From a virus, in the IMG/VR virus record IMGVR_UViG_3300045988_069579, positions 1-43,212 of that record: a DNA stretch of 43,212 nt. One strand, written 5' to 3'. Both the position numbers and the translations under genes were made by a program. Position 1 is the stretch's first letter; each line of letters starts with the position of its first letter. Below are positions 3,140 to 25,724 of this stretch, one piece after another. The notes under the pieces were generated by a model. It made no database searches. It saw nothing but the letters and a program-made list of their open reading frames with translations, and had not been told where the DNA came from.

Positions 3140-3694
3140 ATGGGAGCAAGACGAATTTCTAACGCGACGAACGAGAAGATAATTGCGCTTATGTCGATGG
3201 GCAAGACAGGCGAACAGGCGGCGTTTGCGGTCGGCGCGAGCGGGAGCTACTGCAACAAACTGTACACTGTGGTAAAGCACATTGCCAATGAGCGGTGGGA
3301 CGAGTTAATAGAATATTCTCGGTCTGCGACAACCGGCGGGGCGATTGTCTGGGCTTGCGAATACCTCAATACGCAACTGCCGCAAGAAGTCGCGGAGGCT
3401 ATTGAGGCGGTACGGCATCGCAGAGCAACGCCCAAAGCGGCAGAAGCAGCGCCGCAGCCCAAACCGCCAGCAGAGCCGATTGACAACACGGCGACGGCAA
3501 TCATCAAACTGCTTGAAAAGCTCGATGAGGCAGTGAACACCATAACCGAAGCTGCTGACGATATATGCCAGACGATAACGACGGCGCGAAAGCTCAACGA
3601 GGACTGCATAAACGCAAACTTCGATGTGCTGACGGCTACACTCCGTGACGGCGTTGAAAGCGTTAAAACGACGATAAGAAAGGGACAAAAATGA
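3140..3694 (+). CDS. Hypothetical protein, possible N-terminal HTH, Ala/Pro-rich linker
   Basis: A strong SD (AAGGAGG) precedes the start and the ORF is 184 aa. I recognise no family. Confidence 0.6.
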   Translation: MGARRISNATNEKIIALMSMGKTGEQAAFAVGASGSYCNKLYTVVKHIANERWDELIEYSRSATTGGAIVWACEYLNTQLPQEVAEAIEAVRHRRATPKAAEAAPQPKPPAEPIDNTATAIIKLLEKLDEAVNTITEAADDICQTITTARKLNEDCINANFDVLTATLRDGVESVKTTIRKGQK

Positions 3695-3909
3695 CACGCG
3701 GGGAATATATGTGCAAGGCGCGATTGGATGCAGGGTTAAGCATCGTGCGGCTGGCCGAAATATCCGGCATAGCCCAAACCACGATAAGCCTGCTTGAACG
3801 CAAATCACTACGCGGCGGCTGGATAGATACAATAGAAATCCTTGCCGATGCACTCGGACTGAGTATCGACGAATACGTAGGCCATAAGGTGGTGACTAAG
3901 CATGGGTAA
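3691..3909 (+). CDS. XRE-family HTH DNA-binding protein
   Basis: LSIVRLAEISGIAQTTISLLER is a helix-turn-helix pattern. The start forms an ATGA overlap with the upstream gene. Confidence 0.7.
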   Translation: MTRGEYMCKARLDAGLSIVRLAEISGIAQTTISLLERKSLRGGWIDTIEILADALGLSIDEYVGHKVVTKHG

Positions 3910-5956: not shown

Positions 5957-6168
5957 CTAACGACTGTAAAGGCTGCACAGTGCGCCGCATAGGCTGCCAC
6001 GCCAATTGCAGCAGCTATCAGGCGTTTTGCGCGGAGAACGATAAACGCAAGGCGGCGGCGCGGAATGAATACCCGGCAAGGGAGCTGCTGGTGACCGGCT
6101 ACATAAAACGCGCAAGGGCGGTAAAGACATTTACAACTAAAAAATGTTGGAGGTATCGCGGAACATGA
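5953..6168 (+). CDS. Hypothetical Cys-rich protein (71 aa)
   Basis: An ATGA overlap at 5953 marks the start. The sequence has CKGC ... CHANC motifs. Confidence 0.5.
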   Translation: MTNDCKGCTVRRIGCHANCSSYQAFCAENDKRKAAARNEYPARELLVTGYIKRARAVKTFTTKKCWRYRGT

Positions 6169-6389: not shown

Positions 6390-6603
6390 CGGATATTATG
6401 ACAGCCGGGCAAAATGCCCGTTTTGGTCAAAAGGCTCGGCGCGTGAGAACAAGATTTTTTGCGAAGGCCCATGCGGTGACGCAAGATTGCAGCTGTGGTT
6501 TAAAGGCGACGAGCAGAAACGCCGGGTGTATGTGTCCAAATACTGCTGCACACAGTACGCACAATGCCCGGTCTACAAGATCACATTAGCGGAAAAATAC
6601 TAA
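6376..6603 (+). CDS. Hypothetical Cys-rich protein (75 aa)
   Basis: An in-frame ATG at 6376 overlaps the end of the previous gene. The protein contains 8 Cys. Confidence 0.45.
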   Translation: MRGADGYYDSRAKCPFWSKGSARENKIFCEGPCGDARLQLWFKGDEQKRRVYVSKYCCTQYAQCPVYKITLAEKY

Positions 6604-6674: not shown

Positions 6675-7184
6675 ATGCAGCGCCACCTACATTATTATAA
6701 AGGCATGAGCAAATGGGATGATATCAAAACTGAATATATTACTACCGACATAGGCACAAGGCCGCTTGCCGAGAAACACAACGTTTCTTACAGCACATTG
6801 CGAAAACGTGCTGAGCGTGAAAAATGGGCGCAGAAGCGGACGCAGTATAGCGCGGCCAAGGGCGCAGACCGTATCAAAGCACAGCTGGAAATTGACTATC
6901 AGGAATATAAAAGCCTGTTAGAAGCTGCTGGGCTGCTGTCAAGCAAGCTATGCAGCGCTGTAGCACAGTTAACGGATGCGGATATTATCAAGGATAAACG
7001 CGGCCTGAAAAGCCTTACAGGCGCAATGAAAGACCTTGCGGAAATCCAGGGTGTTAAATCCGATGCCGATAAACGCGAGCAGGAAGCGCGCATTAAAAAC
7101 CTTGAACGCCAGGCAGCAGGAGAAGCACAGCCTGAGCCGGTGCGCGTTATCATTGCCGGTGCCGATGATTTCTGCGGTAAATAA
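6675..7184 (+). CDS. terS: Terminase small subunit (putative)
   Basis: It lies immediately upstream of the large terminase. An HTH-like segment (PLAEKHNVSYSTLRKRAEREKW) is followed by a coiled coil. AAGGTGG sits 9 nt upstream of ATG 6675, and ATG 6705 is an alternative start. Confidence 0.6.
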   Translation: MQRHLHYYKGMSKWDDIKTEYITTDIGTRPLAEKHNVSYSTLRKRAEREKWAQKRTQYSAAKGADRIKAQLEIDYQEYKSLLEAAGLLSSKLCSAVAQLTDADIIKDKRGLKSLTGAMKDLAEIQGVKSDADKREQEARIKNLERQAAGEAQPEPVRVIIAGADDFCGK

Positions 7185-7186
7185 CC

Positions 7187-8644
7187 ATGCCGGAATATAA
7201 AATCGACTACCTAAGCCCTACACAACAGGAATTTTTAAAGGATAGGGCGCATGTTGTGTTTTTCGGCGGCGCACGCGGCGGCGGCAAAAGCTTCGTCGTG
7301 CGCGTCTCGGCGGTGCTGTACTGCTTCAAGTTTCCGGGGATAACATGCATGATCGTGCGTAAAACATACCCGGAATTGCAGGAAAACCACATAGTACCTC
7401 TGACACGCGATCTGCATTGCTATGATGCTGATAAATCACAGCGCATGGCGAGCTATAACGATCAGAAGAAGGTCATTACATTCCCGAACGGCAGCAGAAT
7501 ATTGTTTAGGTACTGCGATACCGACAAGGATGCAGAACGCTTTCAGGGCACAGAAACGGATATTCTGTTTTTGGACGAAGGTACCCACCAAACCGAAGAA
7601 CGGTTTAGGAAGCTCTCGGCCTGCGTGCGTGGCGCGAATGATTTCCCACGGCGGATATATGTTACATGTAACCCCGGCGGTGTGGGTCACAGTTGGGTGA
7701 AACGGCTGGCGATAGACCGCGCCTATACCGATGGGGAGAACCCGGAGGACTATTCATTCATTCAAAGCAAGGTCACGGATAACAAGCCGCTGATGGATGC
7801 AGACCCCGACTATATAAAAAAGCTTGAAGCCCTGCCGCCTAAGCTGCGTAAGGCGTGGTTGGAGGGCGAATGGGATATATTCGACGGCGCATTCTTTGAA
7901 GATTTCAGAACGCGCCCGGATGCGCAACTGTGCGCAAAGGCGGGGATAACGCCGGAAGAAGCTATAGCACAGCGCAGATTTACGCATGTTATACCGGCGT
8001 TTGACCTGAACGAAGGCGCGGCGCGTGGCTGGACGATATACAGGTCATACGACTTCGGCTATAACAAGCCATTCAGCTGCGCATGGTGGGCTATCGACTA
8101 TGACGGCGTACTGTATCGCGTTTTGGAGCTGTACGGCTGCACAGATACGCCTAACGAAGGTGTCAAGTGGACTCCCGACGAGCAGTTTAAGCGCATCCGC
8201 GAGACGGAGCAGACGCACCCATGGTTTAAAGGGCGCAAGATACTTGGTGTTGCTGACCCGTCAATATGGGATGTGTCGCGCGGCGTGTCGGTCGCGGAGA
8301 CCGCCGAGAAATACGGTGTGTACTTCGACCCCGGCGACAACAAGCGGCTTGCAGGCTGGATGCAATGCCATTATCGGCTGCAATTTGACGATAACGGATA
8401 TCCGCGCATGTATGTATTCGACAACTGCAAGGCGTTTATCCGTACTATACCGTTGCTGATGTACGATGAACACAAGCCCGAAGATTTGGACACGTCGATG
8501 GAAGACCACGTAGGCGATGAATGGCGTTATATGTGTATGGCAAGACCGATAAGCCCGATAATACCTCAAAAACCGAAAGTTATATTGTCAGACCCACTGA
8601 ACCAATACAAAAAGGATGGATACAAAGCAAATGGATATCACTAA
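7187..8644 (+). CDS. terL: Terminase large subunit
   Basis: It has a Walker A-like motif (FFGGARGGGKSF), a Walker B-like motif (ILFLDEGTH), and a C-terminal nuclease-type region. It is 485 aa. Confidence 0.9.
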   Translation: MPEYKIDYLSPTQQEFLKDRAHVVFFGGARGGGKSFVVRVSAVLYCFKFPGITCMIVRKTYPELQENHIVPLTRDLHCYDADKSQRMASYNDQKKVITFPNGSRILFRYCDTDKDAERFQGTETDILFLDEGTHQTEERFRKLSACVRGANDFPRRIYVTCNPGGVGHSWVKRLAIDRAYTDGENPEDYSFIQSKVTDNKPLMDADPDYIKKLEALPPKLRKAWLEGEWDIFDGAFFEDFRTRPDAQLCAKAGITPEEAIAQRRFTHVIPAFDLNEGAARGWTIYRSYDFGYNKPFSCAWWAIDYDGVLYRVLELYGCTDTPNEGVKWTPDEQFKRIRETEQTHPWFKGRKILGVADPSIWDVSRGVSVAETAEKYGVYFDPGDNKRLAGWMQCHYRLQFDDNGYPRMYVFDNCKAFIRTIPLLMYDEHKPEDLDTSMEDHVGDEWRYMCMARPISPIIPQKPKVILSDPLNQYKKDGYKANGYH

Positions 8645-10547
8645 GGACACTATACGAGCAGACGGCAGCAAAGCGCCCGAGCTTGGCAGCGTTGAAACTG
8701 CGGCGCAGATGCTTGGCATAAAACCCATTGGGGAACAGCAGATACAGGATTTGATGCAGATACTAAACAAATATCGCGCCGGGAAGAAGTCGGTCGATAG
8801 CCGTATCATCGCATCGGAAAACTGGTGGAAGCTGCGAAACGATGTTGAAGAAGACAAGGACGGCCACGCAAAGCCGGGCTTTCGTAGCAAAAGCGGCTGG
8901 CTGCATAACGTTATCACCAACAAACACGCCGACTCAATGGATGCCTACCCCGAGCCTAACATACTGCCGAGGGAACAGGGCGATAAAGCAGAGGCGGCTA
9001 TGCTGTCTAAAATAATCCCTGTTGTGCTGGAAAAAAACCAGTTTGAGGCCACCTACAGCAAAGTTATGTGGTCGAAGCTAAAGACCGGCACAGGCGTGTA
9101 CAAGGTCATATGGGACAAGAACAAAATGAACGGCTTGGGCGATATCGATGTGCGCAAGTGCAACATCCTTAATTTGTTTTGGGAGCCGGGCGTTGAGGAT
9201 ATACAGCAGTCAAAGTATTTCTTTGAGGTCGATTTTCAGGACGAAACCGAAGTCCGAGCCATGTTCCCGGCTGAGCTGCCGGAGGGCAAGAATATACCGC
9301 ATGATTTTATAACCAGCAAATACAGATACGATGACCATGTAGACACTACGGACAAAGTGCCTGTTATCAGTGCGTACTATCACAAAAACGGCGTGCTGCA
9401 CTACATACTGTTTGTCCCCGGCACTGTGCTTTACGCGACGGAAAATGACCCTGACCGTGCAATGACCGGCTGGTATGACCACAGCAAATACCCGTATGTG
9501 TTTGATACGCTATTTCCCATTGAGGGCAGCCCATGCGGATACGGCTATGTAGACCTGTGCAAAGCGCCGCAGACGGAAATTGACCTGATGAAAACGGCGT
9601 ATGTGGAAAATGCAATGGTCGGCGCAAAACCCAGGTACTTTAAGAAAGCCAACTGCGGCGTAAACGTTGAGCAGTTTACGAACCTGAATGAAACCATCAT
9701 AAACGTCGAAGGCAGCTTAAACGACGATAACCTAAAGCCTGTTACGCACGATAACCTTGACGGTAACTATATCAGCATGCTGCAGCTTAGCATCAACGAA
9801 TTGCGCGAAACCAGCGGCAACACAGAAACCGCAACAGGCACGACAAGCAGCGGAGTAACGGCTGCAAGCGCAATAGCAGCATTGCAGGAAGCCAGCGGCA
9901 AAGGCAGCAGAGACAGCACCAAGGCAAGCTACAGGGCATACAGCGAATTAAACTATCTTGTCATAGAGCTGATAAGGCAGTTTTACGATGCGCCGCGTCA
10001 GTTCCGCATTCTGGGCGACGGCGGCGAGGAATTGTTTTTAAGCTATTCCAACGAGCACATAAAGCCGCAGACACAGATGTTTGCCGGATACGATATCGGG
10101 CAGCGTGTGCCGGAGTTTGATATCAACGTCGTTCCGCAGAAGCGCACGGCATACACCAAGATGTCAAACAATGAATTGGCATTGCAGTTTTATAATCTCG
10201 GCTTTTTCAATCCGCAGCAGACAGACCAGGCGCTTGCATGCCTTACGATGATGGATTTTGACAGCATCGACAACGTTCGAAAGACCATCAAGCAGAACGG
10301 CACACTGTTTGACAGATTTAACACGGTACTGCAAGTCGCGGCACTGCTTGCGGCCAAATGCGGTGATGCGCAGTCGCTTGCGCAGATACAGGCTATAGCA
10401 CAGCAGGCCAACGTGCAGATCAGCACACCGCAGGCGAATATACAGCTTGCAGAAGACCCGGCAAAGCGCGAACATGCGCAGGTGTCTAACGCCCGGGCAA
10501 AGACGCGCGAGGCGGCAATGCCCGATGGAGGACATGCAACGACATGA
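8616..10547 (+). CDS. Portal protein
   Basis: A 643-aa ORF directly after terL, with the size and position typical of a portal. I did not recognise specific portal motifs. Confidence 0.75.
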   Translation: MDTKQMDITKDTIRADGSKAPELGSVETAAQMLGIKPIGEQQIQDLMQILNKYRAGKKSVDSRIIASENWWKLRNDVEEDKDGHAKPGFRSKSGWLHNVITNKHADSMDAYPEPNILPREQGDKAEAAMLSKIIPVVLEKNQFEATYSKVMWSKLKTGTGVYKVIWDKNKMNGLGDIDVRKCNILNLFWEPGVEDIQQSKYFFEVDFQDETEVRAMFPAELPEGKNIPHDFITSKYRYDDHVDTTDKVPVISAYYHKNGVLHYILFVPGTVLYATENDPDRAMTGWYDHSKYPYVFDTLFPIEGSPCGYGYVDLCKAPQTEIDLMKTAYVENAMVGAKPRYFKKANCGVNVEQFTNLNETIINVEGSLNDDNLKPVTHDNLDGNYISMLQLSINELRETSGNTETATGTTSSGVTAASAIAALQEASGKGSRDSTKASYRAYSELNYLVIELIRQFYDAPRQFRILGDGGEELFLSYSNEHIKPQTQMFAGYDIGQRVPEFDINVVPQKRTAYTKMSNNELALQFYNLGFFNPQQTDQALACLTMMDFDSIDNVRKTIKQNGTLFDRFNTVLQVAALLAAKCGDAQSLAQIQAIAQQANVQISTPQANIQLAEDPAKREHAQVSNARAKTREAAMPDGGHATT

Positions 10548-12158: not shown

Positions 12159-12203
12159 GCCTTGAGCGTTTCCGCGTGGCCTATGACCATGAAAGGAAAC
12201 GAT

Positions 12204-13355
12204 ATGATCAATTTTAATTGGATTCAGATTTTCGCAGATGCAGGCACCGTTGTTAACACCCTTGTTAGCAACGGCACCTCCAACTACACCAACGCATACA
12301 CCGGCGAGGCCGTCGCGGCCAGCCCTGCCACTAACACGATGGCGCCCGAACTTAAGACGTTCTATGACACTGAGCTGCTCGAAAATGCCAGAGTTGAGAT
12401 GTTCTATGCGCAGTTTGGCCGCAAGCAGAGACTGCCCAAGAACGGCGGCACCACTGTTGAATGGCGTAAGTTTAACACCTTTGCAAAGGCGACTGAGCTT
12501 AAGGAAGGCGTTATCCCCACCGGTCAGCAGTTTGGCGCAACTAAGCTGACTGCATCTATCACGCAGTATGGCACTTACACCTCTATCACCGATAAGCTCG
12601 AGATGCGCGCATATGACGATGTCATTCTTGCAGCGACCGAGGAAATGGGCGCATCCGCTGCGGCTACTCAGGAAACCCTTATCCGTGATGCGCTGCTTGT
12701 CGGCACTAACGTAATGTACTGCGATAACGTCACCGAGGACGGCACTAAAGTTTCTACTCCTACTTCCCCGGCAACCATGGGCGCAGGCGGCACTACTTCC
12801 AGCAGCGGCAGCTCGACTCCTGACGGCTGGGCACTGCTTACCCCCACCATGGTAAACAAGGCCGTTACTAAGCTCAAGAAAGACCGTGTGCCCAAGATAA
12901 ACGGCAAATACTATGCTGTTATCCATCCCTCTGTTGCATATGACCTGCGCCAGAGCAAGGAATGGATTGAAGTGCATAAGTATGCAGCTACCTCCGAGAT
13001 CTTCAACGGCGAAATCGGCGAGCTGCACGGCTGCCGCTTCATCGAGGATACCTATGCACCTATTCTCGGCGCGAGCTACAAGTATTCCAGTAGCGCTACC
13101 TACAAGAATAAGTCCGATGGCGTTACTTATGCGACTTACTTCTTCGGCAAGGACGGCTTTGGCATTATCGACCCCGAGGGCGGCGGCCTTGAGATGATCG
13201 CTCATGACAAGGACGAAATCGGCGGTCCTCTTAACCAGTTCAGCACCATCGGTTACAAGTTCGAGACCAACGGCGCAACTATCCTTTACCCTGAGCGCGT
13301 ACTCCGCGTGATGTCCGTCAGCTCGTATTCCGCGACTGACGAAGAAAACAAGTAA
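12204..13355 (+). CDS. Major capsid protein with Prp-type N-terminal leader
   Basis: A 383-aa ORF from ATG 12204 (GAAAGGAAAC upstream). The N-terminus is MINFNWIQIFADAG. It follows the scaffold and is followed by a strong hairpin. Confidence 0.8.
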   Translation: MINFNWIQIFADAGTVVNTLVSNGTSNYTNAYTGEAVAASPATNTMAPELKTFYDTELLENARVEMFYAQFGRKQRLPKNGGTTVEWRKFNTFAKATELKEGVIPTGQQFGATKLTASITQYGTYTSITDKLEMRAYDDVILAATEEMGASAAATQETLIRDALLVGTNVMYCDNVTEDGTKVSTPTSPATMGAGGTTSSSGSSTPDGWALLTPTMVNKAVTKLKKDRVPKINGKYYAVIHPSVAYDLRQSKEWIEVHKYAATSEIFNGEIGELHGCRFIEDTYAPILGASYKYSSSATYKNKSDGVTYATYFFGKDGFGIIDPEGGGLEMIAHDKDEIGGPLNQFSTIGYKFETNGATILYPERVLRVMSVSSYSATDEENK

Positions 13356-18077: not shown

Positions 18078-21000
18078 ATGGCGAAGAAAATAAATCTTAC
18101 AAAAGAGCAGATAGAGGCAGCTGCAAAAGCAGGGCGCGAAAAGACCGAAAAAGCCTATGCCCAGAAAGCACAGGCAATCGCCAAGGGTTACGGCACAAAC
18201 AGTGCTAAATCCAAAGTTGGTAAGAATAGAGGACAATTGCCCGGAGTGAGCGAAGTTCTTGCTCGTAACAACCCTGCTTTCGCTGCTTTGCAGCAAGCCG
18301 GGAACGCTAAAAAGCTCACCAAGGGCAGCGACGCTATATCTTACGGCAAAAAAAGCAGCGAGCGCAAGCCGGGACAGATAAGCGCTTTGGGCGCAGGAGA
18401 TTACGGCGCGTCAAAAACAACGAGATTTGACGCTACGGCGAACGCTGCAATATACAGCACGGCAGGCGCATTTTCAAACCTTTTCGGTATGCTGAAAGAA
18501 AAGGACGCGCAGGCAAAAGCGCGAGATGCAGCGGACAGCGCAAGGCTTAAAGCCGGATATGACGCAATGCTCAACGGCGAGGACATAAACACGCGCGAGG
18601 GCGGTCTCAAGAAGCAGCATGAGGACAGCCAAAAGGCCTTTGAGCGCGGTTATGCAGCGCTTGCAGGAGCAGGACAAAAGAATTTTGACACCGCCGATGA
18701 GCTTGCCGCACGCTCGAATGAGTATCAGCAGATAGCAAAAGAGGGCTTAGGCAAGTTCGGACAGGGCGTTGTTGACTTCGGCATTGCAGGCTTGCAGTTT
18801 GCCGGTGACGCGGCTATGAACGCCATTCTCCCCGGCTCAGGTCTTGTGGCAATGGGAATGAGAGCGGCAGGAAGCGGAGCGCAGGAGGCAAGAAACAACG
18901 GCCTTGATATCAATGACCAGTTTACCTCTGGCCTCAAGAGCGCGGCAATCGAAGTGCTTACAGAGAAGCTTTTCGGCGCTGCTTCCAAAGTCGCATACGG
19001 CAAGGGCATTATCAGAAACGAGAGCCTTGTTAACGGTCTTGTAAACCGACTGGCAAAGACGGACAAAGGCCGCACGGCGCTCAAGGTCATTGTCGGCGCG
19101 AACGAAGAAGGCTTAGAGGAAGTCCTCTCGGATATCCTCAACCCTGTTGCAGACCGTGTGCTCAAGCTGGATGACGGCAAGGGCGATTGGTCTGACCTGG
19201 GCGAGGACATGGACGCAGAGCAGATGCTCGAGGACTACATCATCGGCAGCACTCTCGGCCTTTTCGGTGCAGGAACGAACGTTATAAGCGGTCAGTATCG
19301 CGCCGAGAACGCGCAGCAGAGAGCGTATGAAAATTATCAGCGCGAGCTTGTAAACGCCGGGATTGCATCCGAACAGGGTTCTCAGGCACAGTTGACCGCC
19401 GCAGAATATCAGAACATCCTTGACAACAGCGCAAAGAGAGGCAACAGAAACCTGAGCGACAAGGAAACAGCCAACCTTGAACAGCTTATAACGGCTGAGA
19501 GAGACACGCCGGCAGTGCGAAATGCTCTTGAGCGCAGCGGTACGCTTGTTGACGATAACACCGCGACGGTCATTGCCAAGGCTGCAAGCGGTCAAAAACT
19601 GACGAGAGCGGAGCAGAGCATCATAGACAGCAGCCCGGTAATGCAGCAGGCTGTGAATACCATGACCGGGAGCGGCGCTGTTGCTAACATCCGCACAATG
19701 GCGGCAAAGAACAGCGTTGTTAACAGCATGGCAGAGCGATATACGGTCTCCCCGGAGGTTATAAGCAGAACATACGATCTCGCCCCCGTCGAGTCTCCCG
19801 AGGCGTTTGAAATGGCGTTTGATGCTGTGTATCAGATGGGGCAGCAGGGCGCGAACAAAGAGTCGCTTATCAAAGTGCCCGTTCTGAACCGCGCACAGGC
19901 GGAGATAGCCTATAACATGGGTGCATCTACAACTCAGGCGGCGGTTGACAATGCGGCGGCGCAGGGTGATAATGTAAGCACACAGGTAAACAACCAGATA
20001 AACACACAGGAGGTAAACGAGAATGGAGTACGTCTACGCGACAGCGGCCAACGGCTTAACGGTCAGAATACCGAAGGACAAATACCCTCAGTGGAAAGAG
20101 GCACAGTCGAAGCTTACGCCGGAACAGATAGCGGCAGACAAAGCGGTTATAGCGCAGCTCAAGGCAAAACTGGGCAAAAAGTAGTCTATAACGGCGTAGA
20201 GCAGGAGAATGTCTACTACTCCGGCGAGGACACCGAGAGCATGAAAAAAGGCCGTGAGCTTGCAAGAAGCTACGGCTATAACGTCACATATTTCGAGGGC
20301 GGCAATATCAAGGACAGCGGCGGCGAGTTCAGAGGCATGGTCGATACCGAGAGCAAGACCGTTATGGTGCGCTCAGACCATCCCGACATATCCGCAGAGC
20401 AGATAATGCGCCACGAGATGGGGCATGCGGCGATAGCGCAGGGCGATATAAGCCTTGGCGAGCTGCGCAGTGCCATGCTTTCAGACCTCTCGGAGAAGGA
20501 GCTTAGCAGCGCTGTCGAGGTCTACAGGCACGCATACGGCGACACGATAAGCGAGGCTGAGGCGTTTGAGGAAATGTGCTGCGACGCGCTGGGCAAGATA
20601 AACATCTTTGCCGGAACGGAGCACGACAGCGCAAACTACGGCAAGGTACAGGAGAGTTTCCGCAAGCACACCGCCGAGACCGCGAACAAAGGCAGAGCGC
20701 CGCCGAAAGGTGGAGTGAGGTTTAGCCGTGCTCAGCGCGGCCGGAGCGTCGAGATTGAAACCATGGAAAACAACCGTTTTGAGCGGTTGCGACGTTTTGG
20801 TGATAACTTGCCAAAAATATGGTATGCCTATACATCTAAATACTTGTATGTATACGAGAACTACGGTAAGATGGATTATAGCATAAAGCGCCGGATAACG
20901 TTGAACGATAACAATCTCACAAATACGGTAGTGAAGGAGATTAATAATGGAACTTACGGAACTGCAAAGGCTTTTGATACATGGCATGAAAGTCTGCAAA

Positions 21001-24000
21001 CTCGAACAAGACGATATAGTAACCGCCATAATAATGCTGGACACGGAAGAAAAACAGTGGGAAGCGGCAGATTATCTAAAAACAGTGGTACACAATCCGC
21101 CAAAAGCGCCGGAGATATTCAAAGAGATAGCGGAGATAACCATGTAAAGAAAAAATTCTCTATGGAAGCACCCATAGAGGAAAAGAAAAATCTTATAGCG
21201 TTGCACAACCTTGATGAAACAAAGCTTTTGAAAACGCTGAAACTCGGCGGCTTCCCGATGCCGTCAATCGCGATAACAAAGAGCGATATCCCACACACAA
21301 ATTTCGGTAATATTACCATTGTGTTCGGAAAAGAAACAATAGACCCGGAATTTGACCGTCGCAACACGGTATATTCTGCCGATGCGTGGACACCTTTGGT
21401 CCCGCGCGTTGAGTATGAAGCAAATCCAAAAGCTGAAAAAAGAATACGCGATAAGTATTACGAGCTTTTAAGAAAGTACGGTAATGATTTTGCAAGGCCT
21501 CTATACGAGTCGGCAAACTATCTAAGCGATACGCTCACCAAAAACGGCGGTGTTGAAGGTATGGTAGAAAAATTCGCCGATGATACGAGAATGATGCAAG
21601 TATATCTCGCCGACACTGGCAAGAAACCCATTGAAGCTGTAAAAACTGAAACTGTTACGCGGCTTGCAGATAATCAAATCGAAGAGTACGATGCGCTTAT
21701 AAATACTCTCGGGGCGGATGTTCTCAACGAAATGACAGCAAAATCAAATCAGGCTCCATTTGCGGCGAGAAAAGAATGGCTTGCAAAACACGGAGAAGAT
21801 TTGAAATCGGCGTTTGAACAGTATTTAATTAAAAACGGAATAGACGCTGATACGGCAAGGTCTGTGGTTGGAGATATGAAGCCTGCATCACTTCTTAATG
21901 AGGCGATTGCGGCGCGTAAGTATATGAATAACGGAGCAGAAACACGCAGAATCGAGGTTGACACGGATGCTACTAACAAAGCAATAAAGGCTGCGGTTAA
22001 CTCTGATGAGTACATGAAGTGGCTCAAAGACTTGTATGGCAACTCAGTCAAGGATAGCGGCGTTTACAACAACAAGGACTATTATACTCCAAGTGGGAAT
22101 ATGAGAAGCTTTAAGGCTACGCATTTCCCGAATACTCTTGATGGAATAGTCAAGGCCATGACTTCGCAGGGAGACGGTAATTCTCGAAATGTTATGGGAT
22201 TTCACGGAACGAAAAGCCTTAGAGCAACTACGGCGGAGCGTTTTAAAAGTATAGAGGATATGCACAAGCTTGAAGGCCGGTTAAAGCATCTTACAGAGGA
22301 AGAAGCAGCTGAAATAAATGATGCACTTGATAACCGCCTGTCTGAGCTTATGCATAGTGTATATGAACTTGTTCCTCACGATAGCAGCTCCAATGAGTTA
22401 ATCGAACTCGATACTTTAGGCGAAATATTCATAGAAGCAGCGGGACTAAAGTATAAAAGTCCTGCTAATGTTAAATCATTGTTCAAAAAATACAATTATC
22501 CTTTGACTGACAAAATGGCAAACGATATTGTTGCGCTTCTGTATGATATAAACAATATGCCTGTAAACATGTTCGAGGCCAAGCCGGAACGAGCGGTCGG
22601 ATTCGATGAGATACGCAAGGTCATTATTCCTGACACGTCATCGGATACACTGCGCGTGGCGCTTAAAGATGCAGGGATAAATAACGTCGAAGAATACAAA
22701 GCCGGAGACGATGCAGCACGAATGAAGATCGCAAATGACGTGCCGGATGCGCATTTTTCCCGAGAGCCGGAGAGCATTACCGAGCTGCGGCGGCAGAACG
22801 AAACTATGCTTGCTCAGGCGACAAACGAGGACGCGGCAAACGAGAACGAGCGCGGCCTTATAAAGGACTATAAGCGCCAGTATGACAAGGTCAGCGGCAT
22901 TGCCGAAAAGCTTAACACGGCACGTCAGGAAGTGCTAACGGCAGAGAACGGCGGAGACAAAAACGCCATAGCGACAGCCCGAAATCGTTTTACCCTGCTT
23001 AGCAGAAAGTACGCAGAGGAACACAGAAAACTCAGCGATTATGTCAATATCAAGGCTTTGGACAATGTCCTTACGAGGGTAAAGGATAGAACGGCAGAAA
23101 ACCCGCTGCCCGAAGGCATGGGCGCGGCTTCGGCAGAGTTCACGGGCGAGGAAACAAGAGGCGAGCGCTGGGTAACTGAGGCTCAGGGCAAGGGCAACAA
23201 CGCGCTGCATCCGATAAGCCGAGAGCAGGAAGCAAACCTTGCCGAGCAGCAGCACAGAGCGCCGCAGGAGATACCCAAGGAAGATCTGAACGGCAAGCTC
23301 ACGAGCAAGCATGTTTCCACACTCGCAAACAGCGGCGTTACCCCGGCAGAGTTTTCCGACGCACTACGCGAGGACGCGGCACAGGGTAAGTTCTCACACA
23401 TAGCCTATTCCGACGAGGCAGCGCTCAAAAAAGCCGAGATCACGATAGAGGCTAACGGCTGGGAACAGGCGCTTGCCGATTACAAGGCACAGATAAATGC
23501 CGGTAAGGTATCGAAGGACAATACCGTTATGGGCATTGCCCTATACAACAATGCCGTCAACAGCGGAGATTATGCAACCGCGCTGGATATTGCCTCACTT
23601 ATGGTGAAGAACTCAACGAACACGGCGCAGTCTTTGCAGGCGATGCGCATACTCAACAAGCTCTCTCCCGAATGCAAACTGTATCTTGCCGCAAAGTCCG
23701 TTGAGACTATAGAGGAAGACCTTAACGAGAAATACAAGGGCAACAAAGCGGATATACACGTTGACAAGGTGCTGTATGACGAGTACGGTAAAGCACTCAG
23801 AAGCGGCGACGAGTACGGCATAAAGACCGCATGGGCGAAAATCGAGCAGAGCGTAGCACAACAGATAGACGCGACATGGTATGAAAAGCTCAACAATTTC
23901 AGATACCTCGCTATGCTGGGCAATCCTCGTACACATGTCAGAAACATCGTGGGCAACGCATTTTTCGTGCCAGTCAGGGCAGTCAAAAACACCATAGCAT

Positions 24001-25724
24001 ACGGCCTTGAAAATGTCGCCGACAGCAAAGTAAACGGAGGCATAGAGCGCAGCAAAGCCATGCTCAACCGCAATAACGCAAATGACGTGGCACTTATAAA
24101 ATATGCAATGACCGATTATGAAGCGGTGCAGGAGACTATACTCTCGGGCGGCAAGTATGTCGATACATTCCAGGGTATAGACAAGAAAAGGACGATTTAC
24201 AAAACCAAAATCCTTGAGGCGGCACGCAAGGGCAATTCAAACCTGCTTGACGCGGAGGACGCATGGTTTTGTAAACCTGCATACGCCAACGCGCTCGCGA
24301 AATGGTACAAGGCAAACGGCATAACCGCCGAACAGCTCAACACCGGCAAGGTACCCGAAAGCACGATAATAAAAGCTCAGACCGTTGCGATAAAGGAAGC
24401 CCAGAAAGCGACTTACCGCGACACAAACAGATTTTCGGCAATGGTCAGCAGGCTCGGCAAGGTCGATAACAAGATCGCTTCCGCGCTAATAGAGGGCGTT
24501 TTGCCGTTCAAAAAAACACCGGCAAACATACTCGTGAGAGCGGTGGAATACTCGCCCGTAGGGCTTATAAAGTCGCTCGCCGTTGATACAAAGAAAGTCA
24601 AGGCGTATGTAAACGGCGATGTAGAAAACGGAATGTCACCGGCACAGTTTATCGACGACGTTTCCGCCGGGCTGACTGGCACTGCGCTTGTCGGCTTGGG
24701 TGTTCTTCTGGCATCGTGGGGATTATTCAGCGGTAGCCCCGGAGACGACGATAAACAAAACAAGTTTGACGAGCTGGGCGGAAGTCAAAACTATGCGCTT
24801 AACATAGGCGGTCTAAGCATCACGCTTGACTGGCTCGCGCCGGAAAGCATGCCGCTATTCGTGGGCGTTGAACTGTATAATTCGCTCAGCGGCAAAAGCG
24901 AGGATAACGGCTTTGTTCAGAACCTTATGAGTTCCGTCATGAGCCTCAGTACGCCCATGTTTGAAATGTCAATGCTTCAAAGCGTCAACGATCTGTTTGA
25001 TAACCTTGCCTACATAAAGCAAGGACAGGGTTCGTTCAAAATCGTAACGAGCATGGCGACAAACTACATATCACAGTATTTCCCGACGCTGTTCGGGCAG
25101 GCCGAAAGAGCGTTTGGAGAAAATCAGCGAGAAACAACGTATATTGACCGCAACAGCAATGTCGGCTCTGAGCTGCAATATATGTGGGGCAAGATCGCCA
25201 ACAAGATACCGCTTTATGATTTCAGTCAGATACCGTACATTGACGCATGGGGACGTACAGAGGAAACCGGCAACCTGTTTGAGAGGGTGCTCAACAACTT
25301 TGTAAATCCGGCATACGTCAAGAAGGAGCGCAGCACCGAGATAGACGGCGAACTTAAACGGCTTTATGATCTGGGCGAAACCTCCGTATATCCCAGCCGC
25401 GCGAAAACAAACACAAAAATCAACGGCGAATATCTGACGGCTGAGGAATATGTGAAGTATGCAACAGTTAAGGGGCGAACCTCTTATGATCTGGCAACGA
25501 AGATAATAAACAGCAGCACATATTCTCGCGCATCCGATGCCGAAAAGGCATACATGCTCAGTTATGTATACAAGTACGCAGACCATATCGCTAAGTACGA
25601 AGTCAATAACGAGAGCAGCCTTGCGAAATGGGAAGCAGCAGCCTATAAGAGTTCAAACCCGGCGCAGGGGATAATCGACCATGCGCAGGAATATTATAAG
25701 CGCAAAGAGGACGACGAAAGTTAA
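18078..25724 (+). CDS. Giant polyvalent virion protein (2548 aa) with HExxH metallopeptidase motif and C-terminal membrane segment
   Basis: One uninterrupted ORF. HEMGH lies at 20412-20426, and a hydrophobic helix (GLTGTALVGLGVLLASWGLF) lies near 24670-24730. No tape-measure, tube or sheath gene occurs elsewhere. Confidence 0.8.
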   Translation: MAKKINLTKEQIEAAAKAGREKTEKAYAQKAQAIAKGYGTNSAKSKVGKNRGQLPGVSEVLARNNPAFAALQQAGNAKKLTKGSDAISYGKKSSERKPGQISALGAGDYGASKTTRFDATANAAIYSTAGAFSNLFGMLKEKDAQAKARDAADSARLKAGYDAMLNGEDINTREGGLKKQHEDSQKAFERGYAALAGAGQKNFDTADELAARSNEYQQIAKEGLGKFGQGVVDFGIAGLQFAGDAAMNAILPGSGLVAMGMRAAGSGAQEARNNGLDINDQFTSGLKSAAIEVLTEKLFGAASKVAYGKGIIRNESLVNGLVNRLAKTDKGRTALKVIVGANEEGLEEVLSDILNPVADRVLKLDDGKGDWSDLGEDMDAEQMLEDYIIGSTLGLFGAGTNVISGQYRAENAQQRAYENYQRELVNAGIASEQGSQAQLTAAEYQNILDNSAKRGNRNLSDKETANLEQLITAERDTPAVRNALERSGTLVDDNTATVIAKAASGQKLTRAEQSIIDSSPVMQQAVNTMTGSGAVANIRTMAAKNSVVNSMAERYTVSPEVISRTYDLAPVESPEAFEMAFDAVYQMGQQGANKESLIKVPVLNRAQAEIAYNMGASTTQAAVDNAAAQGDNVSTQVNNQINTQEVNENGVRLRDSGQRLNGQNTEGQIPSVERGTVEAYAGTDSGRQSGYSAAQGKTGQKVVYNGVEQENVYYSGEDTESMKKGRELARSYGYNVTYFEGGNIKDSGGEFRGMVDTESKTVMVRSDHPDISAEQIMRHEMGHAAIAQGDISLGELRSAMLSDLSEKELSSAVEVYRHAYGDTISEAEAFEEMCCDALGKINIFAGTEHDSANYGKVQESFRKHTAETANKGRAPPKGGVRFSRAQRGRSVEIETMENNRFERLRRFGDNLPKIWYAYTSKYLYVYENYGKMDYSIKRRITLNDNNLTNTVVKEINNGTYGTAKAFDTWHESLQTRTRRYSNRHNNAGHGRKTVGSGRLSKNSGTQSAKSAGDIQRDSGDNHVKKKFSMEAPIEEKKNLIALHNLDETKLLKTLKLGGFPMPSIAITKSDIPHTNFGNITIVFGKETIDPEFDRRNTVYSADAWTPLVPRVEYEANPKAEKRIRDKYYELLRKYGNDFARPLYESANYLSDTLTKNGGVEGMVEKFADDTRMMQVYLADTGKKPIEAVKTETVTRLADNQIEEYDALINTLGADVLNEMTAKSNQAPFAARKEWLAKHGEDLKSAFEQYLIKNGIDADTARSVVGDMKPASLLNEAIAARKYMNNGAETRRIEVDTDATNKAIKAAVNSDEYMKWLKDLYGNSVKDSGVYNNKDYYTPSGNMRSFKATHFPNTLDGIVKAMTSQGDGNSRNVMGFHGTKSLRATTAERFKSIEDMHKLEGRLKHLTEEEAAEINDALDNRLSELMHSVYELVPHDSSSNELIELDTLGEIFIEAAGLKYKSPANVKSLFKKYNYPLTDKMANDIVALLYDINNMPVNMFEAKPERAVGFDEIRKVIIPDTSSDTLRVALKDAGINNVEEYKAGDDAARMKIANDVPDAHFSREPESITELRRQNETMLAQATNEDAANENERGLIKDYKRQYDKVSGIAEKLNTARQEVLTAENGGDKNAIATARNRFTLLSRKYAEEHRKLSDYVNIKALDNVLTRVKDRTAENPLPEGMGAASAEFTGEETRGERWVTEAQGKGNNALHPISREQEANLAEQQHRAPQEIPKEDLNGKLTSKHVSTLANSGVTPAEFSDALREDAAQGKFSHIAYSDEAALKKAEITIEANGWEQALADYKAQINAGKVSKDNTVMGIALYNNAVNSGDYATALDIASLMVKNSTNTAQSLQAMRILNKLSPECKLYLAAKSVETIEEDLNEKYKGNKADIHVDKVLYDEYGKALRSGDEYGIKTAWAKIEQSVAQQIDATWYEKLNNFRYLAMLGNPRTHVRNIVGNAFFVPVRAVKNTIAYGLENVADSKVNGGIERSKAMLNRNNANDVALIKYAMTDYEAVQETILSGGKYVDTFQGIDKKRTIYKTKILEAARKGNSNLLDAEDAWFCKPAYANALAKWYKANGITAEQLNTGKVPESTIIKAQTVAIKEAQKATYRDTNRFSAMVSRLGKVDNKIASALIEGVLPFKKTPANILVRAVEYSPVGLIKSLAVDTKKVKAYVNGDVENGMSPAQFIDDVSAGLTGTALVGLGVLLASWGLFSGSPGDDDKQNKFDELGGSQNYALNIGGLSITLDWLAPESMPLFVGVELYNSLSGKSEDNGFVQNLMSSVMSLSTPMFEMSMLQSVNDLFDNLAYIKQGQGSFKIVTSMATNYISQYFPTLFGQAERAFGENQRETTYIDRNSNVGSELQYMWGKIANKIPLYDFSQIPYIDAWGRTEETGNLFERVLNNFVNPAYVKKERSTEIDGELKRLYDLGETSVYPSRAKTNTKINGEYLTAEEYVKYATVKGRTSYDLATKIINSSTYSRASDAEKAYMLSYVYKYADHIAKYEVNNESSLAKWEAAAYKSSNPAQGIIDHAQEYYKRKEDDES
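20947..21147 (+). CDS. Nested +1-frame ORF (66 aa) inside the giant gene
   Basis: AAGGAG (20934-39) sits 7 nt upstream of ATG 20947. The product MELTELQRLLIHGMKVCKLEQDDIVTAIIMLDTEEKQWEAADYLK... looks like a folded helical protein. The host frame here is G/S/R/K/T/N-rich low complexity. Confidence 0.45.
   Translation: MELTELQRLLIHGMKVCKLEQDDIVTAIIMLDTEEKQWEAADYLKTVVHNPPKAPEIFKEIAEITM

Follow-up and report, generated by a model that had tools for sequence, protein, structure and literature searches.

A conserved small gene is probably encoded in the +1 frame within a giant polyvalent-type virion protein gene of a phage

INTRODUCTION

Can a small open reading frame (ORF) that lies wholly inside a giant virion protein gene, on the same strand but in another frame, be a gene in its own right? 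This question is raised by a viral sequence of 43,212 nt (IMG/VR record IMGVR_UViG_3300045988_069579, positions 1–43,212; the whole of this stretch is called the window below), in which the host ORF at 18078–25724 codes for a protein of 2548 aa and contains, on the same strand and in the +1 frame, a complete ORF of 66 aa that we call Y. An earlier note on this DNA had drawn attention to Y and proposed that it reflects either genuine overprinting or the capture of a small gene within a linker of a polyvalent virion protein. In the present study Y was followed through homologous DNA of diverged phages and bacterial chromosomes, and the evidence supports this proposal: the nested frame recurs, it is under purifying selection, its product is predicted to fold, and small genes have been called at this place where the host gene is broken. 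We estimate a probability of about 85% that bases 20947–21147 are dual-coding and that Y is a conserved gene read in the +1 frame; this estimate comes from sequence comparison and structure prediction.

RESULTS

The nested frame has its own start signals

Y begins at ATG 20947 and ends with TAA at 21145–21147, and its predicted product is MELTELQRLLIHGMKVCKLEQDDIVTAIIMLDTEEKQWEAADYLKTVVHNPPKAPEIFKEIAEITM. The coordinates and translation in the earlier note were reproduced, including the Shine–Dalgarno (SD) sequence AAGGAG placed 7 nt before the ATG, and the peptide that it had quoted for the host frame over the same bases is indeed that of aa 957–1023. Upstream of the ATG the nested frame is open for only 4 codons, being closed by TGA at 20932–20934. 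Among the 84 out-of-frame ATGs of the giant gene, which open ORFs with a median length of 12.5 codons, 5 are followed by at least 50 codons and 4 are preceded by an SD core, and both properties are combined in only two, at 20947 and 20023. The overlap is mildly AT-rich, with a GC content of 0.43 versus 0.50 for the giant gene as a whole. A sigma-70-like promoter was not found upstream of Y in the window, and thus a separate Y transcript is not indicated.

The nested frame recurs in diverged relatives

The decisive approach was to fetch the DNA of distant homologues of the host segment and to inspect its +1 frame (retrieved homologous loci carry L-numbers below, and called proteins P-numbers). 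At the homologous place, +1-frame ORFs of 63–80 aa are present in at least 10 diverged lineages (L005, L004, L006, L025, L051, L032, L020/21, L073 with two copies, L076, L079 and L080), nearly all of them with an SD and an ATG, and the aa identity of the nested products to the window protein is only 19–39%. In L005, L004, L006/L025, L051, L032 and L020/21 the ORFs are 65–80 aa long and the SD core lies 6–9 nt before the ATG; the cores found at this distance in L005, L004, L006/L025, L051, L032, L020, L079 and L080 are AGGAGG, AGGAG, GGAGG, GAGGAG and GGAGGG, and a conserved ATG with a core so placed is found in more than 10 lineages. Moreover, a stop closes the nested frame 1–14 codons ahead of the conserved ATG in almost every lineage, L032 being the exception, where the frame is open for ~68 codons upstream of the ATG.

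Searches at the protein level reached the family through a profile. A word-indexed search with the 66-aa protein returned only two near-identical called proteins, whereas a profile of eight nested products recovered 58 called proteins of 43–78 aa (64–78 aa except for one truncated copy), all of them unnamed and without a Pfam domain. When 1.84 billion representatives were searched exhaustively with phmmer, 13 further small proteins were added, and the matches P0181 and P0189 were rejected as spurious, since they are long repeat proteins. Also rejected as a free-standing homologue was P0001 (a called 66-aa gene, 88% identical). Its contig L001, like that of the other near-identical protein, carries a decayed piece of the same giant gene within a bacterial chromosome; since L001 still has an open host frame, this match alone proved nothing independent.

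Relatives of Y have been called only where the host ORF is interrupted by mutation, deletion or masked bases. A collection of 15 billion predicted proteins does not contain the window protein itself; since gene finders do not allow one gene to be fully nested in another on the same strand, Y of the window is missing there and the family is invisible to standard annotation. The earlier note had asked whether the protein exists as a free-standing gene elsewhere: small called homologues do exist, but all called copies examined lie within fragments of polyvalent genes and never form an ordinary intergenic gene. When the region, three Y types and the second nested protein described below were compared by blastn and tblastn with INPHARED phages and PLSDB plasmids, nothing matched, and scans of IMG/VR, JGI metagenomes and GTDB genomes with Y of the window returned only the same phage. 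In one of the loci with a related (B-type) Y, the phage-like contig L006, a reverse-transcriptase gene (Pfam RVT_1, 922–2013) is located a few genes upstream of the polyvalent genes, and it may belong to a diversity-generating retroelement.

Selection acts on the nested frame

Across Y, stops are absent from the host frame in 15 of 16 instances and from the third frame in 0 of 16. Upon synonymous resampling given each nested protein, the host frame stayed open in 0.1–4.2% of trials per lineage; for the window the fraction was 0.6%, and 5.9% of codon shuffles stayed open, in agreement with the remark of the earlier note that such an open host frame is unlikely without selection.

The two frames were then compared through omega, the ratio of nonsynonymous to synonymous change, which is used here as a contrast between frames. 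For L025 and L076, both of which have Y in long host ORFs in phage-type contexts, omega was 0.23 in the nested frame and 1.13 in the host frame, and in the flanking host-only sequence it was 0.21 and 0.07. Similar contrasts were obtained for the window versus L073 (0.20 nested, 1.83 host) and for L006 versus the second Y of L069 (L069b; 0.23 nested, 1.34 host). For L032 versus the first cassette of L065, nested omega was 0.035 and host omega was not defined; all 8 substitutions alter the host-frame residue, and only 1 of them alters Y, the other 7 being synonymous there. At larger distances, pairwise protein similarity over the same DNA in eight lineages gave a mean z of 9.3 for the nested products versus 2.8 for the host products, and the nested similarity exceeded the host similarity in 26 of 28 pairs. 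Comparison of the lineages thus shows the Y frame as the one preserved by selection in the overlap, the host frame being essentially only kept open, and to judge from these sequences the nested ORF is more than chance. The earlier note had held that its proposal would fail if homologues, excess synonymous constraint in the host frame, and peptides or an initiation peak were all lacking; homologues were found, and the nested frame is under purifying selection.

Several points weigh against this reading. The closest pair, the window and L001, has 8 of 9 changes nonsynonymous in both frames; those in Y are all conservative (V/I, T/A, I/L, I/M, A/V), the changes in the host frame include H>L, D>G and D>V, and of the 17 changes between the two in the upstream flank, 13 are at host third positions. 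The omegas were calculated by the NG86 (Nei–Gojobori) method, whose values are not independent in overlapping frames, and several of the comparisons mix phage and chromosomal copies; hence, these values are taken as contrasts and not as estimates. Finally, translation from ATG 20947 is inferred.

Y is predicted to be an acidic four-helix protein

The earlier note had expected a small helical protein, and AlphaFold2 (AF2), run on the alignment of 58 sequences, gives a confident four-helix domain with helices at residues 5–16, 21–30, 34–47 and 54–65 (mean predicted local distance difference test (pLDDT) 96.2, predicted template modelling score 0.82). The protein is acidic, with an isoelectric point (pI) of 4.7 in the window and a median pI of 5.0 and net charge of −4 in the family. 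The host-frame linker over it is basic in the window (pI 10.6), and its pI ranges from 5.1 to 10.6 across lineages.

No significant match to Y was obtained in Pfam, PHROGs, NCBIfam, PADLOC, PDB sequences or PDB folds (in the fold search none at E <1). In BFVD, the single match below E = 1 is an uncharacterised 64-aa protein of a gut phage, with a template modelling score of 0.85. The DNA-binding folds of antitoxins (ribbon–helix–helix, helix–turn–helix, AbrB, Phd/YefM) were not recognisable in the four-helix model.

The host protein reads through a module end and a linker

Coordinates of the features are collected in Table 1. The assignment of the host protein as a polyvalent-type virion protein, already made in the earlier note, is borne out by its PBECR5 domain, by its HEMGH motif and by the position of its gene, which is on the same strand and downstream of the genes for terminase (7187–8644), P22-like portal (8616–10547) and capsid (12162–13355). 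The match of phrog_22978 to the host protein has E 5e-92, and relatives of the protein bear Pfam domains of the ART-PolyVal, LPD3, PBECR3 and MuF_C types. PBECR domains are predicted RNases and are typical of polyvalent proteins, which phages package and inject (PMC5512222). The region of HEMGH in the host protein is not matched by a Pfam peptidase model, and hence the peptidase assignment is made by the motif alone. The sequence of the window is also found in IMG/VR UViG_3300045988_086657 and in ERZ791794 NODE-269, one of which is a metagenome contig of 42,977 nt.

Table 1. Positions of the features discussed (numbers without a locus name refer to the window; chromosomal sites are given by locus)
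Feature	Position	Strand	Description
Host gene, polyvalent-type virion protein, frame 0	18078–25724	+	2548 aa; Pfam PBECR5, phrog_22978
Second putative nested gene	20023–20184	+	+1 frame, 53 aa (MEYVYATAANGLTVRIPKDKYPQWKEAQ...; MEYVYATAANGLTVRIPKDKYPQWKEAQSKLTPEQIAADKAVIAQLKAKLGKK); SD AGGAGG at 20008–20013
HEMGH zincin-type motif, aa 779–783	20412–20426	+	upstream metallopeptidase-like module; aligns with HE(V/M)GH of homologues
Module X, aa 891–986	20748–21035	+	helix, three strands, two helices (AF2 of aa 801–1241)
SD AAGGAG of Y	20934–20939	+	7-nt spacer before ATG 20947
Probable nested gene Y	20947–21147	+	66 aa, +1 frame; predicted acidic four-helix protein of an unnamed family
Disordered G/S/R/K/N-rich linker, aa 988–1039	21039–21194	+	last two thirds of the overlap and the junction; pLDDT <50 (query residues 188–239)
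Junction KKKFSME	21147–21167	+	begins on the last base of the Y stop; conserved right boundary of the X+Y cassette
PBECR5 module (PF18814), aa 1025–1232	21150–21773	+	Pfam E 6.7e-65; starts 3 bases after the Y stop
Chromosomal site after the gene for an S-layer homology (SLH) protein	L058–63		in L058, TAG closes the host frame just before the SD, Y intact
Chromosomal site after rpsB-tsf	L064–68		Y present in one to three copies; contains an exact tandem duplication of 473 bp
Chromosomal site next to ftsH	L070		host frame closed, Y intact
Chromosomal site L069	L069		three tandem diverged Y paralogues, each shifted +1 relative to the previous one, beside a Barstar gene and a PBECR5 N-terminal fragment

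Directly upstream of the linker, the AF2 model shows a compact module, called X, whose elements in query numbering are H91–105, E114–118, E122–128, E134–141, H145–156 and H163–186, with pLDDT 70–80. Module X has no match in the libraries searched, and neither X nor Y matches a Pfam model, the LPD families included. The first third of the overlap codes for the last helix of X (aa 963–986), which has the motif AKAFDTWHESL; in most lineages the motif of this helix reads ExF(D/N)xW. The earlier note had described the host stretch over Y as typical of a linker or of an overprinted frame. A linker is indeed predicted for aa 988–1039, which are modelled as disordered, but not for the first ~30 residues, which are modelled as a helix of the upstream module, with pLDDT falling from 75 to 55. 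Over the overlap, 74% of the host-frame residues are G/S/R/N/D/T/Q/K/E and 9% are hydrophobic; the range for the former class in the host stretch over Y is 68–82%. The helical C-terminal part of PBECR5 is modelled with pLDDT 88–96.

Two further observations concern the junction region. Just 3′ of the Y stop, a hairpin at 21158–21179 with a 9-bp stem (CTCTATGG-AAGCAC-CCATAGAG) covers the host codon ATG at 21162; its stem is retained in L001 through a wobble change, and on the minus strand it has a terminator-like score. In addition, a motif (K/R/H)(F/Y)S(M/L/R)(K/E) is found at module boundaries of the host protein, as RFSR at 20718–20729, KFSM at 21153–21164 and HFSR at 22752–22763. The same boundary motif stands after every Y in L004, L025, L032, L065, L069, L073 and L079 and its positions are those of recombination junctions; the embedded metallopeptidase could cleave there, or the motif could be no more than a cassette seam.

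X and Y are exchanged together

In all lineages, with the single exception of the second cassette of L065, the module adjoining Y upstream is X, and a junction motif (K/R)(F/Y)S(M/L)(K/E) follows Y in every lineage examined. A direct view of an exchange is offered by the chromosomal locus after the gene for the SLH-domain protein, where L001 carries X+Y of the window type and L005/58/59/78 carry X+Y of the A type. The flanks of these two versions are 100% identical (...RGRSVEIETMENNRFERL and VKKKFSMEVPVEEKKNLIALHNLDET) and the centre is highly diverged, which indicates cassette replacement by recombination at the conserved junctions. Comparison of loci thus shows that the X core and Y behave as one swappable cassette between conserved junctions.

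Close relatives from the same sample as the window carry a different module in place of X+Y. In L009–L019 (IMG/VR, sample 3300045988), whose best-aligned segment has up to 84% aa identity to the giant gene, an unrelated module of ~200 aa (KDLTNYKKVAAYIA...KYGVYRYSTAFAFPVK...) at ~3300–3800 replaces X+Y between the same metallopeptidase end and PBECR5 start; a different module between the same boundaries points to module replacement within one phage population.

Y was also considered as the cognate antitoxin of PBECR5. This candidate was downgraded, since most PBECR5 modules occur without Y, modules other than PBECR5 can follow Y, and two Y types precede an identical PBECR5 start.

Bacterial chromosomes keep intact copies of Y

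Intact Y genes occur in truncated pieces of polyvalent genes at no fewer than four (at least 4) chromosomal sites of gut Clostridia, some of them as tandem arrays (Table 1); the organisms named are Clostridiales UBA7273, Ca. Heteroscillospira and Ca. Aphodoplasma. The Y genes start at 6001, 6474 and 6947 in L065 and at 6742, 7001 and 7254 in L069. The A-type chromosomal cluster comprises 27 variants, all 15 of those listed being 72 aa long, and together these are found on hundreds of contigs of up to 416 kb.

Several side observations were made at these sites. The tandem duplication in L065 (6213–7147; 473 bp, 99% identical, 2.0 copies) is that of a cassette with one Y gene, and the copy number of this cassette varies between samples (L064, L065, L066, L067). 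In L069, a promoter-like site TTGGCA-17-TAAAAT (6518–6546, plus strand) lies ahead of the array of three Y genes. On the minus strand of the same locus, the Barstar gene (7672–7995) is located directly downstream of the truncated linker and PBECR5 N-terminal fragment (8016–8381), and this PBECR5 fragment has its own +1-frame ORF of 70 aa (8240–8452), which the hidden Markov model (HMM) of the Y family did not detect. A +1 ORF of 70–72 aa (MVTAKDETERRLLQKMDN...LALRDEPGQTPHMESLLDKGATTREMV...) is also present in the linker before PBECR5 of a P0014-type gene, at 7903–8121 in L065 and at 2333–2545 in L067, in the latter with the SD GGAGG; it looks like a very divergent member of the Y family below the HMM threshold. 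Finally, chromosomal copies in L058, L059, L078 and L001 share an insertion of ~210 nt (alignment columns ~107–330; ~5450–5680 in L058) with terminal inverted repeats GCTGACAAGAGTCGAACAC ... GTGTTCGACTCTCGTCAGC, which breaks the host frame between ‘CDALGKI’ and ‘NIFAGTE’ and which the window and L005 lack. It resembles an element of the miniature inverted-repeat transposable type or a structured-RNA element.

A second nested frame in the same host gene

The other out-of-frame ATG with both an SD core and a long ORF, at 20023, opens a second nested frame just before the HEMGH module, over another host stretch rich in G/S/Q/R. Inside host frames longer than 1800 codons, L011/L019 and L022 retain it in the +1 frame together with its SD and ATG; for L023/24 and L031 the conservation seen is that of the open frame. 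Across the five, the products share 31–79% aa identity, and between the window and L011 omega was 0.07 in the nested frame versus 2.0 in the host frame. A match of the second nested protein to a Pfam or PHROG family was not found. Because this frame behaves like Y, nested small genes in linkers may recur in these giant genes.

DISCUSSION

How the overlap would be read and how it may have arisen

If the same bases code twice, ribosomes translating frame 0 would read through the overlap and make the polyprotein, passing from the last helix of X into the disordered linker, the KKFSME junction and the RNase-like PBECR5 module. Other ribosomes would initiate internally on the late mRNA at AAGGAG-N7-ATG and stop at TAA 21145, releasing a free Y of 66 aa. 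As to origin, neighbouring module genes probably fused through the alternative frame of a small gene and thereby took it up; alternatively, the linker would have been overprinted very early. The order of the two frames is not proven, but the globular composition of Y, set against the biased composition of the host stretch, favours the captured small gene.

A function for Y can be proposed tentatively, at less than even odds. Y may be a partner that neutralises the polyvalent protein in an immunity-like manner: the producer cell would make it in cis to bind a module of the same polyprotein, X being a likelier target than PBECR5; the chromosomal copies would then serve as orphan immunity against injected effectors. 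What favours such a partner is the cassette behaviour, the place of Y at the 3′ end of a variable module, the occurrence of orphans and paralogue arrays, and the Barstar neighbour. On the other side of the balance, no match was found for Y, in sequence or in fold, among known immunity, antitoxin and chaperone families, and the toxicity of X or of PBECR5 is an assumption. Only ~6 of the 50 IMG/VR loci with PBECR5 carry Y, and in L032, the second copy of L073, L079 and L080 the module that follows Y is another one. At one locus an identical downstream flank follows different Y types, so that the type of Y is independent of the PBECR5 variant.

Competing explanations

That Y is no gene at all is difficult to reconcile with the comparative data. 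If it were a chance or untranslated ORF whose conservation is a by-product of the host frame, the mostly nonsynonymous changes between the window and L001 in the nested frame would be accounted for; but host similarity is far weaker than nested similarity, omega is ~0.2 in the nested frame and 1 or higher in the host frame, and ATG, SD and stop are conserved at 19–39% identity in a product modelled with pLDDT 96, so we consider a chance ORF very unlikely. Just as improbable is a programmed +1 frameshift into the nested frame, by which a truncated polyprotein ending in Y would be made, with AAGGAG as the stimulator. The nested frame is +1 and ends in a stop, and an internal SD can stimulate +1 shifts, as in prfB. 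However, almost every lineage has a stop 1–14 codons before the conserved ATG and an SD at the 6–9 nt spacing of a start, a slippery or stop-codon shift site is not visible at 20935–20946, and Y persists as an ORF of its own in loci with a broken host frame (L058, L070, L069). A frame closed upstream of a conserved ATG with SD, together with the survival of Y alone, leads us to reject the frameshift fusion. Least credible of all is that the giant ORF is an artefact of assembly or sequencing and hides three separate genes, for the upstream modules, Y and PBECR5. Related genes are indeed split differently (P0012 is a separate 472-aa gene in L006 and belongs in L025 to a frame exceeding 2110 codons), but the same sequence is present in two other assemblies, and an open host frame in 15 of 16 instances, from many independent assemblies and with a chance of 0.1–4% each, leads us to reject this explanation.

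Two further explanations accept Y as an expressed gene and differ in what it does. Y may be an unrelated passenger, moron-like, anti-defence or regulatory, that is sheltered in a permissive linker and whose link with X is purely physical, through the overlap of the two; we hold this to be only slightly less likely than the neutralising partner. The lack of detectable kinship between Y and immunity or antitoxin families would fit such a passenger, as would the varying downstream neighbour, the second, unrelated small gene in another linker of the host gene (linkers as safe harbours) and a host omega of ~1 or higher, which leaves the linker sequence free to change. But a passenger would not be expected always beside X-type modules, in polyvalent fragments in all called copies examined and never as an ordinary intergenic gene; the X core and Y co-vary as a cassette between conserved flanks, and tandem diverged paralogues beside Barstar resemble loci of the immunity type. 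A chaperone for assembly or packaging, in which the acidic helical protein binds the basic linker or X and helps to load the polyprotein into the capsid, is unlikely. The charges of Y and of the window linker are opposite, and Y, being encoded in cis in the late structural operon, would be made together with its client. Yet the linker charge is not conserved across lineages, most related polyvalent genes do without Y, and a chaperone gives bacteria no reason to keep copies or arrays of Y without the rest of the phage. The neutralising partner thus remains the function that we favour, with the reservation already expressed.

Significance

Same-strand nested genes are already known in phages; the Y family is unnamed in every library searched. 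The family is conserved, confidently predicted to fold and common in phages and chromosomes of human-gut Clostridia. The overlap also offers a concrete model of the assembly of multi-module polyvalent proteins, in which cassettes become fused across small genes. Should Y prove to be an antidote to an injected module, polyvalent effectors of phages would be linked through it to bacterial orphan-immunity arrays, an undescribed layer of counter-defence and counter-counter-defence. As a speculative generalisation, which we regard as doubtful at present, effector modules of polyvalent genes in gut Clostridia phages would travel with antidotes overprinted in the +1 frame of the inter-module linkers, each pair forming one recombination cassette, bacteria would keep the antidotes as orphans or arrays against injected effectors, and 20023–20184 would be another example of a general design rule.

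Comparison with known systems

An architectural parallel is found in phage lambda, where the spanin gene Rz1 lies wholly inside Rz in the +1 frame, and Rz and Rz1 interact in lysis. Like Y and its host gene, Rz and Rz1 form a same-strand +1 overlap in which the small ORF is fully embedded and has its own start signals, and both of their products are used. The two spanin proteins are of comparable size and interact, whereas here the host is a virion polyprotein of 2548 aa and Y overlies a module end and a linker. Unlike in Rz/Rz1, Y carries almost all of the constraint in the overlap, and its family is also found as orphans in bacterial chromosomes. Nested genes are likewise known from phiX174, with B nested in A and E in D.

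In type II toxin–antitoxin operons with toxins of the BECR/RelE fold, the antitoxin gene is immediately upstream of the toxin. There is a likeness to this order in that Y, an acidic helical protein of ~65 aa, ends 3 nt before the BECR-fold PBECR5 module. It differs in that Y is without a DNA-binding antitoxin fold, that most PBECR5 modules are without Y, and that Y also precedes other modules.

In the usual case of overprinting, one product is globular and the other is compositionally biased and disordered, which corresponds to an ancestral frame paired with a novel one (PMC8227390, PMC3494269). There, the long gene is ancestral and the short ORF is novel and disordered; here, the short Y is folded and conserved, and it is the segment of the long gene that is biased and evolves freely. 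This reversed polarity suggests the capture of a pre-existing small gene and not birth de novo.

The host protein fits the description of polyvalent proteins by Iyer et al. 2017 (PMC5512222): it is giant and multi-module, is encoded in the virion block, has PF18814 and the HEMGH motif of a putative zincin module, and shows mosaic shuffling. Cassette-like small ORFs near some polyvalent loci were noted in that work; nested out-of-frame genes in polyvalent linkers are not described there, and our literature search found no description of out-of-frame genes inside polyvalent protein genes.

The X+Y unit also resembles the cassettes of toxin C-terminal and immunity genes of polymorphic toxin systems (Zhang et al. 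2012, PMC3482391), in that a variable unit lies between conserved flanks and a small gene stands at the 3′ end of the variable module, X taking the place of a putative toxin. The chromosomal copies of Y similarly recall the orphan and polyimmunity arrays of those systems (PMC3482391), since truncated fragments keep the small gene, diverged paralogues stand in tandem, and Barstar adjoins them. In polymorphic toxins the immunity gene is a separate ORF after the toxin gene (PMC3482391), whereas Y lies inside a polyprotein gene that continues beyond it, in another frame.

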